64,000 bases of DNA from Sminthopsis crassicaudata. Lineage: Eukaryota. Location of the stretch: positions 92,991,148 to 93,055,147 of the forward strand of contig NC_133621.1 of the NCBI RefSeq assembly GCF_048593235.1, in the 5' to 3' direction. Numbering within the stretch: position 1 is the first letter of the stretch; every line of letters begins with the position of its first letter. Positions 16,601 to 18,841 of this stretch are shown one piece after another. Below the pieces are notes generated by a model that was not told the origin of the DNA, searched no databases, and was given only the letters and a program-made list of their open reading frames with translations. The translations under genes and the position numbers were made by a program.

Positions 16601-17328
16601 CAAGCAGCTGGTATAAATTATCAGAATTAATATTACTTTTACAAAGAACTAAAATTTTAGTTTTTTTTTTCTTTCATAATAAAAGCAAGTGATATGTGAT
16701 AGTTTGCAAATAGGCTTATATTTCAATCAATTCTCACAATAATCCTATGAGGTCCATGATGCAGATATTCCTATTTCCATATGACAGATAAGGAAATTGA
16801 GCCAGGTAAGTGACTTGTTCAAGCCAATCTGGTAAATGAGAGAGTAACACTCAAAATCAGGTCTTTTGACTCTCTAAACTCCTACTTTTAAAAATTATAC
16901 TATACTGTTTGCTTGTTATTTTTCTAATAGTTAAAAATCAACATAATACTTTTCTTTTTTTATCATGTGCAACTTAATCCCTAGCACACATGTACCCAGG
17001 TGCACTGTCACTCACAAATTTGATTGAATAGGACTTCCCCTATATTCTCCAAATCACTTGGAGAATCTTAGAAGTAGCCTTGGATGCATTTGACTATCAG
17101 ATGCAGTTGGGAGGAATGGAGAAATCTTCCTAACATTTATAATTGACCTAAAGTAAAATGAGCTGCTTCAAGTACTAGTGACTTTTTTTTTTTAATCTCT
17201 GAGGGTTTTCAAACAGAAATTGGATGACCATGCTTTTGTGATTTTCAGTCACAGTTTAAACCAGATGACTTTGAATGTACTTTCCAACTCCTGAGATTTT
17301 GTGATTCTGTGGATGTGAGTAGAGAAAG

Positions 17329-17780
17329 TGTTAGGATTACTAGGTGAGAACTCAGGTTGTCTGGACAGTGATAAGGTGAGAATTCAGGTTGTCTGGACAA
17401 TTACAAGGTGAGAACTCAGGTTGACTTGACAGTTCTCTGGCTCAGACCTTTGGTTTGGGCCTTTAAAGGGAGTTTACATGTTAGGAATTCTAAGAGGAGC
17501 AAGTTCATTGGTTGGAGTACTTCTTCCCAGAAGCCCTTGCATTATCCCATGCCCATTCTCTAGGAGGATAAAAAGAGGCAACATTGAGCCTGGAGAGCAG
17601 TCTGGACTGGGGAAGGACAAGAGCTGGAGGAGATTCAGAGCCAGGATTCAGGAAGAAGAAGAGGCTGGCTGGAGGCTCCAGAAGCCTCCCAAGAAACCTG
17701 CTCATAGAGGAAAAGATTATACAGAAAAGAAACCTTCTCCCAGAGAAGGATTACAACTGAGAGACAATCAGAACATTACA
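17329..17780 (+). mobile_element. ERV LTR (class II/betaretrovirus-like), left arm of an inverted LTR pair
   Basis: Begins TGTTAGG and ends TTACA. Contains 32-bp U3 tandem repeats, a reverse CCAAT (ATTGG ~17508) and a TATA-like GGATAAAAAG (~17566). Followed after 2 nt by a tRNA-Lys PBS; preceded by AGAAAG (17323-17328). Confidence 0.92.
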
Positions 17781-17782
17781 AT

Positions 17783-17800
17783 TGGCGCCCAATGTGGGGC
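17783..17800 (+). other. Retroviral primer-binding site, tRNA-Lys1,2 (CUU)
   Basis: TGGCGCCCAATGTGGGGC is a 17/18 match to the complement of the tRNA-Lys(CUU) 3' end (TGGCGCCCAACGTGGGGC); the single difference is a CpG>TpG change. Confidence 0.93.
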
Positions 17801-17806
17801 GCCAAT

Positions 17807-18273
17807 TATAATGTGCTGTTTTCTCCAGAAGCTGCTGATCGCTCTCTGGGAAGAGATCTGCTGTGTCAACTCAAATTTCTCAGACAGATTCTTCTTCCTG
17901 TAGAGAGCCCTTGTCTCCAGACAGTTGCCGTTAACTCTTGTCCAGAGAAGTGACTTCCCTTCCTGCAGAGAGCCGCGTCAAGCCTGATGTAGAGCAGAGA
18001 CTTCTTCTCTCTCTGGAGTGCTGTCCTCTTTTATCCTCCCAGAGAATGGGCATGGGATAATGCAAGGGCTTCTGGGAAGAAGTACTCCAACCAATGAACT
18101 TGCTCCTCTTAGAATTCCTAACATGTAAACTCCCTTTAAAGGCCCAAACCAAAGGTCTGAGCCAGAGAACTGTCAAGTCAACCTAAGTTCTCACCTTGTA
18201 ATTGTCCAGACAACCTGAATTCTCACCTTATCACTGTCCAGACAACCTGAGTTCTCACCTAGTAATCCTAACA
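17807..18273 (-). mobile_element. ERV LTR, right arm, inverted relative to 17329-17780
   Basis: The reverse complement of 18025-18273 equals 17329-17578 except for 2 substitutions and 1 indel. On the minus strand it ends ACATTATA-AT-TGGCGCCC. Followed by AGAAAG (18274-18279), the TSD. Confidence 0.92.
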
Positions 18274-18841
18274 AGAAAGAGTGACCTAGTGAGGTATCAA
18301 AGGCTGGGGAAACTCTGAGTCTCAAATCTGTTCTCTTGGGTGGGCAAGTGCATGATTTCCATGCTATCAAAATAGGACAAAGTAGTGAGTGATATGGAGG
18401 AGAGAATAGAAAGCTAGGTGGAACAGCATGTGGAGTGCTAGTCCTGGAGTGAGGAAAACCTAAATTCAGATCCAGCTTTGGACATTTATTTGTAGTGTCA
18501 CTTTGATCAAGGTATTTTATCTTTCTGTCTCAGTTTTCTCAACTTTAAAATGAGAATAATCCATGCCCTCATTTTTCTTTAGGAAAGTCTCTATCCTACA
18601 TGACCACAAACACATGCCCTGACCTGGAAGAATGAAACTCCTTTAGAAGTCTATGATTCTATAATTCCTGGGGCTGCAGGGATTTGGAGCTAAAATTAGG
18701 GACAGGCAGGATAGAGGTAGAGAGAAGAATGGATGTCACAACAGAGATTAAGGGTATAGTCTGGCTAAGAAGATAAGTAAAAGAATGCATAATCTAAATT
18801 AGATTTAGAGCTTGAAGCCACTTTAGACATATTCTGGTCCA

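Follow-up and report, generated by a model that had tools for sequence, protein, structure and literature searches.

Pairs of LTRs joined head to head through the PBS, mostly at the same base, recur across the genome of Sminthopsis crassicaudata, and one 6-bp target-site duplication (TSD) flanking both outer ends of many of them indicates entry by a single integration. We favor, with some reserve, a general explanation in which the 3' end of tRNA-Lys(CUU) is a self-complementary trap in every LTR element that uses it, such that plus-strand strong-stop DNAs of different co-packaged elements dimerize and integrate as a so far unrecognized class of insertion, the PBS-joined inverted LTR pair, in mammals and other animals. 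Such pairs would be as common as normal proviruses in some families, and each locus would record two elements that shared a particle.

An inverted LTR pair centered on a PBS

The element that led to this finding lies in a 64,000-nt stretch of contig NC_133621.1, hereafter the window. It occupies positions 17329 to 18273 (945 bp) and consists of an LTR on the plus strand, AT, an 18-nt tRNA-Lys(CUU) PBS, GCCA, AT, and an LTR on the minus strand, with an exact TSD, AGAAAG, directly outside both ends. The labels F0, F1, F2, and F3 for LTR types were coined in the present analysis. The features are as follows:

17323..17328, no strand: target-site duplication, left copy (AGAAAG)
17329..17780, plus strand: full LTR of type F3 with TG...CA ends, from a dispersed family that has 39 other full-length copies at 96-98% among the matches listed
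17329..17578, plus strand: outer ~250 nt of the left arm, putatively the U3 part, 247/249 identical to the right arm, with rare variants common only to both arms
17781..17782, plus strand: 2-nt spacer from U5 end to PBS; ordinary proviruses have the same spacer
17783..17800, plus strand: 18-nt PBS, complement of the tRNA-Lys(CUU) 3' end, with one CpG decay
17787..17800, no strand: 14-nt quasi-palindrome, the predicted annealing register for two plus-strand ends
17801..17804, minus strand: first 4 nt of the partner PBS (TGGC on the minus strand), closing the 22-nt joint
17805..17806, minus strand: 2-nt spacer of the partner
17807..18273, minus strand: full LTR of type F2, inverted, its U5-end CA decayed to TA
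18274..18279, no strand: target-site duplication, right copy (AGAAAG)

The 42 bases that an initial annotation of this DNA had quoted around the joint (17773-17814) are present letter for letter, and the full 18-nt Lys PBS that it had recognized complements the CCA-bearing 3' end of a tRNA in this genome that ARAGORN calls Lys(CTT). The complement stops just before the A of GTTCGA in this tRNA, a residue that we take to be m1A58 by standard tRNA numbering. For tRNA-Lys3, plus-strand strong-stop DNA is shown to end at m1A58 in the excerpted text of PMC8599865, and the normal partner of that end is the minus-strand PBS, according to an excerpt of PMC6088434. The last 14 nt had been described as self-complementary at 12 of 14 positions, which is true of undecayed copies at other loci, whereas one CpG decay leaves 10/14 in the window. 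In duplexfold, two Lys(CUU) PBS ends pair in the register expected to yield TGGC, the 14-mer, and GCCA, at -15.0 kcal/mol; the best Lys(UUU) duplex reaches -10.6 kcal/mol via the upstream GGCGCC only, with its 3' ends unpaired. Four tRNA-Lys(CTT) genes are clustered with a single tRNA-Val(CAC) gene at L242 (G000:C4:441025500-441028500). The SINEs are suggestive of a marsupial host.

The window element has inverted LTRs and neither internal sequence nor a coding region. Its layout is not that of an ordinary provirus, with direct LTRs around internal genes, nor that of a solo LTR, with one LTR and no PBS, as two LTRs and a PBS are present. It has in common with class II (betaretrovirus-like) ERVs the TG...CA LTR of a dispersed family, the 18-nt tRNA-Lys PBS after U5, and the 6-bp TSD, a length typical of this class, but those ERVs carry their LTRs in direct orientation. 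A pol frame in L255, an F1/F0 locus, is closest to PDB entries 7usf, 3jca, and 7sr6 (best hits), which we take to be betaretroviral (MMTV and HERV-K), and the F2 and F3 types of the window may be linked to it through ~90% internal similarity to L168. Near the LTR start, at 17342-17434, are three ~32-nt tandem units whose copy number varies among family members, and the fold computed for the window has an energy of -395 kcal/mol (z -39).

The two arms resemble each other in an unusual way. Their 247/249 identity is confined to the outer ~250 nt, after which they diverge into two LTR types, each with its own dispersed family and full-length relatives at 94-98%. Within the shared part, the variants at sites 44 and 152 occur in 0 of the 58 nearest relatives and that at site 151 in 2 of 58. 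Rare variants held in common by both arms would mean either that a single U3 was used twice or that the arms were homogenized after insertion.

Fixed joints, unrelated partners, and single integrations

A genome search for two facing PBS starts separated by a free gap of 0-30 nt, with counts given as strand hits in assembly contigs, returned 340 hits against 1 for the reversed pattern, and the 22-mer with at most one mismatch returned 429, some loci being counted on both strands, against 0 for its reversed control. With controls of 0-1 against 340 and 429, recurrence of the joint is beyond chance. The position of the joint is equally constrained. The initial annotation had placed it exactly at the 18-nt end and had taken variable junctions, or leader sequence retained after the PBS, as signs of ordinary rearrangement; instead, 298 of the 340 strand hits have the 6-nt core that makes exactly the 22-nt joint (the gap is 0-5 in 14 others and 7-30 in 28), as do 39 of the 48 loci on contig C1, and canonical joints have no leader downstream. 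Many off-length hits are no PBS joint, and most long-gap hits have no LTR. The breakpoint is thus PBS base 18, the strong-stop 3' end, as for a product of aberrant second-strand transfer.

Several loci depart from the canonical form in informative details. The 3' part of the PBS is doubled in the core of L031/L116 (a 34-nt joint), which points to slippage or to mispriming in two rounds, and in L066 and L113 a run of T or A after GCCA precedes a jump into internal sequence, which suggests RT stuttering on the spacer. Two F0 by F1 joints among the first 100 rows, L033 and L041, have a perfectly palindromic core, which could reflect mixed repair of two G-A mismatches or, with n = 2, mutation. The common flanks of L015/L016 and of L018/L023 mark them as segmental duplicates; L018/L023 matched the loose pattern only and were rejected as PBS joints.

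The initial annotation had proposed that the event is specific to elements primed by tRNA-Lys(CUU). Enrichment is apparent relative to Lys(UUU), the only type compared, but a few off-length hybrids include a Lys(UUU) end. The genome contains 4713 PBS hits of Lys(CUU) type and 3113 of Lys(UUU) type, the latter a denominator inflated by second PBSs, 69 nt behind the first, that may seldom prime. Three 21-nt Lys(UUU) candidates were found among the 3113 (L108, L112, and L113), none of them with an inverted LTR. L108 proved to be a deletion into the element's own leader; L113, in which CGCCA was copied and is followed by an A-run and then internal sequence, may be a true Lys(UUU) counterpart of the joint. 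Hybrids of the two Lys PBS types are L115, L117, L121, and L134, and the off-length ones, L115, L134, and L117, each have one complete 18-nt PBS abutting the partner. In leaders of the F2 family (L143/L168, L154/L176, L040, L046, L048, and L084), the second PBS, at a distance of 69 nt, is of Lys(UUU) type; joints through this second site show that priming there is possible, and the first site is altered in some copies.

The structure of the joined elements was examined in the first 69 consecutive zero-mismatch 22-mer loci, comprising all 39 on C1 and the first 30 on C2, which were painted with natural LTR copies and classed manually, with 10-kb flanks for 19/69. Arm-to-arm alignment alone missed most loci, because the arms are unrelated. 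In 37/69, the joint connects the unrelated families F0 (~300 nt) and F1 (~577 nt), the 18-nt strand lying on F0 in 21 and on F1 in 16 (p=0.51). Unrelated partners in both orientations indicate that joining takes place between molecules. The remaining pairings were F0 with F0 (0), F1 with F1 (1), within the F2 group (10), and other or unassigned (21); the near absence of same-family F0 or F1 pairs is contrary to random pairing, perhaps because perfect palindromes fold up or get lost. The distal direct LTR of L043, L050, L060, and L073 belongs to the family of the partner, which indicates that DNA of both elements was in one complex. There are 177 F0 LTR+PBS sites in the genome, and 17 of the first 30 are joints. 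Two F0 LTR+PBS sites, L270 and L282, are without the usual leader, one jumping to just before a 3' LTR and the other continuing into a short unrelated stretch.

A TSD was found at 41/69 loci, which fall into four architectures; the other 28 have no class call. Plain inverted LTR pairs account for 16/69; the TSD outside their two U3 ends is an exact 6-bp match in 14, has a mismatch in one, and is 5 bp long in one. An extra U3 piece or tandem LTR precedes the TSD in 6/69 (L069 and L086 among them), and in 14/69 the inverted piece gives way to an LTR in direct orientation, in some cases with internal sequence as well, and a TSD closes the element. The last architecture, one LTR and the 22-mer with a TSD right after GCCA, accounts for 5/69, all F0 (four exact TSDs, one with a mismatch). 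The plain dimer is therefore one of four outcomes, and the simple-dimer reading has to be amended to that extent. At U3 ends defined by homology, an exact 6-bp TSD is present in 17/32 loci and in 0/992 cross-locus pairs; in seven of the other 15, an exact TSD flanks an end farther out (L051, L060, L064, L069, L086, L087, and L095), and likewise in L101. The five single-LTR loci (L067, L078, L079, L082, and L093) look as if integrase had used the CA of the joint as its attachment end.

A proposed mechanism and its alternatives

Much of what the initial annotation had proposed, an antiparallel dimer of plus-strand strong-stop DNAs, agrees with these data, in that the joint is intermolecular (37/69 with unrelated partners, oriented 21:16). 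What a plain dimer does not predict is the single U3 haplotype of the window arms, and the U3 variants common to both mean that the mechanism needs an added step. In the reading that we consider likely, a plus-strand strong-stop DNA annealed by its 3' end to another plus-strand PBS within one particle, and its extension by RT gave head-to-head LTRs. Plus-strand synthesis is established to halt after 18 tRNA bases, the position at which the joint lies. The 12/14 self-complementary end would then pair with the PBS of another plus strand, the minus-strand PBS being unavailable, in the computed register, and RT would copy the partner's U5-R-U3 while displacing the partner's minus strand. From here the growing end might run off the partner's U3, yielding a plain inverted pair; jump onto U3 again, yielding an extra or shared U3; jump to the minus strand, yielding an inversion inside a short provirus; or stop at GCCA. 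All four products are present in the genome, presumably made by this order of events. Integrase would then join the ends, leaving the 6-bp TSDs observed. That RT acted inside a particle is suggested by the single TSDs together with the unrelated partners. The inverted pairs are a by-product of replication, and no function is claimed for them.

For the window, the partners would be F3 and F2, and a jump within their shared U3, such that one U3 served both ends, probably explains best how a single U3 came to stand with two R-U5 types. L074, L077, and L104, each with an obvious duplication of a U3 piece, provide models for this jump. Identity of the outer arms like that in the window is present in L025, L040, L048, and L104 and absent in L001, L005, L007, L013, L029, and L088. 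Gene conversion between the arms after insertion could also have produced the shared U3.

The template of the extension is where the first alternative differs. The strong-stop 3' end could mimic the tRNA and prime on the PBS of a co-packaged RNA, or of a longer plus strand, copying U5-R and jumping to U3, with the second strand made later. This scheme predicts the same 22-nt joint and readily explains both the single U3 with two R-U5 types in the window and the 4/69 loci (L069, L086, L094, and L101) in which partner sequence runs past U3 through the PPT and into internal sequence. PPT-primed strong-stop DNA cannot supply sequence beyond the PPT, so RNA or longer plus strands must serve as template at times. 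Against it as the general route, plain F0 by F1 pairs stop precisely at the TG of the partner, where a TSD follows, L104 contains the whole partner LTR before its jump, and partial F1 copies end at scattered positions (~18, 115, 173, 307, 310, 357, and 417) rather than clustering like an RNA 5' end. Whole LTRs, U3 included, in plain pairs and L104, together with scattered partial ends, fit a DNA template, and we consider the RNA route unlikely.

Extension on a second plus strand also accounts for unrelated partners, which self-priming does not. Were one strong-stop DNA to fold back via a GCCC/GGGC hairpin and copy its own LTR, the same joint would result, and the 5/69 one-LTR loci, as well as the near-identical arms of L298 and L319 from metagenomes, may be explained in this way. 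Different LTRs, found in the window and in the 37/69 loci, could not be joined by folding back, and the lone Lys(CUU) PBS folds weakly, at only -3.6 kcal/mol, in a register other than the one required, making this a very unlikely source of the joints in general.

Rearrangement on the host side, by recombination of head-to-head proviruses at the PBS or by inversion or folding back of one provirus in the chromosome, could exploit the PBS quasi-palindrome as microhomology, and arm conversion after insertion could yield the shared U3 of the window. The single 6-bp TSD at both outer ends (17/32 versus 0/992) and the implausibility of hundreds of chance neighbor pairs all breaking at one base make this highly improbable. 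Amplification of one founder composite, or chimeric assembly, has a probability close to negligible: F0 by F1 dominates the sample, and composites with direct LTRs, a PBS, and a PPT could be re-copied, but the joints occur in both orientations and in four architectures, involve LTRs of many types and ages, and have differing TSDs and CpG decay inside the joint, and the same joint is present in unrelated assemblies.

Relation to known systems and occurrence in other genomes

Self-complementarity is known to cause mispriming by a strong-stop 3' end in minus-strand strong-stop self-priming. That reaction is intramolecular, has been described as a dead end, and is suppressed by nucleocapsid, whereas the present joints involve the plus strand, are mostly intermolecular, and are integrated in the germ line. 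Pulsinelli and Temin are reported to have described, in 1991, deletions that errors of strand transfer caused in vectors of spleen necrosis virus, and unintegrated retroviral DNA can carry inversions made by integrase; both are reverse-transcription errors from the PBS end, but neither is known to have a fixed PBS-to-PBS joint. DIRS-like elements have inverted terminal repeats, a tyrosine recombinase, and no TSD. The window element resembles them in its inverted-repeat boundaries and differs in having no genes and a 6-bp TSD.

The nearest relatives are in HIV-1. Defective proviruses from aberrant or premature second-strand transfer, as presented in excerpts of PMC12657518, likewise have a misplaced plus-strand strong-stop DNA, junctions at or near the PBS, and integrated products. 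There the end lands on minus-strand DNA, giving deletions and tRNA read-through, whereas here it lands on another plus strand and gives an inverted LTR; the terms "inverted," "inversion," and "palindrom" have 0 occurrences in that excerpted text. The orientation-preserving minus-strand acceptor of such transfers is absent from our loci, in which the first acceptor is plus-sense, with a later direct-LTR jump in 14/69, and the joint behaves like an aberrant second-strand transfer without a minus-strand acceptor. For asymmetric HIV-1 LTRs, the excerpts of PMC9278108 propose that strong-stop DNA of one genome moves to the copy made from the second genome in the particle, as here, but the LTRs stay direct and (+)PBS pairs with (-)PBS. 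In the main texts covered, which are thin for pre-2000 virology, we found neither a PBS joint between plus strands nor an inverted LTR pair that had integrated, and an earlier description is possible. The excerpted text of PMC11334065 has 0 occurrences of "inverted," "PBS," and "palindrom," and that of PMC3187697 uses "palindrom" solely for RNA dimerization. At L238 (G000:C1:30403719-30403743) and other dispersed matches, the PBS match overlaps a tRNA-like copy, possibly reflecting plus-strand read-through past position 58 into the tRNA, comparable to that in the HIV-1 excerpts of PMC12657518.

The joints would represent a route of reverse transcription absent from textbooks, of which one germ line has kept hundreds of products. 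From each locus one can read off two elements that were likely copied together in a particle, which makes ERV co-packaging testable from the genome alone (F0 with F1 in 37/69). Integrase, by implication, can take two U3 ends from different families, or the joint's own CA (5/69), and the choice of primer would fix a built-in error rate (17 of the 30 F0 LTR+PBS sites sampled). There are practical consequences as well. Annotation pipelines would split such loci into two solo LTRs, dating by LTR divergence fails for products with two different LTRs, and the insertions seed new inverted repeats, which are predicted sources of double-stranded RNA or instability.

Outside this genome, the 22-mer matched metagenome contigs 46 times and viral contigs once. 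The 22-mer alone is insufficient as proof of a joint: the viral hit, L338, is an ordinary provirus whose leader begins ACCA, and bacterial genes contain or adjoin the match in six metagenome records (the L292 group) and in L336, several hits being chance matches in bacteria. Among the 30 metagenome rows examined, near-duplicates having been dropped, 15 show inverted arms from the joint outward, two of these rows being one family; L317 ends in TG..CA and is flanked by a 4-bp TSD. A Pfam search of 72 ORFs around the 30 loci gave one sub-cutoff integrase zinc-finger hit (L324), too little to class the elements. The joint-bearing contigs among L292-L337 look eukaryotic, with Frag1, phospholipase B, and C1-domain pieces nearby, and their arms are often of the same family, unlike those of the F0/F1 loci.
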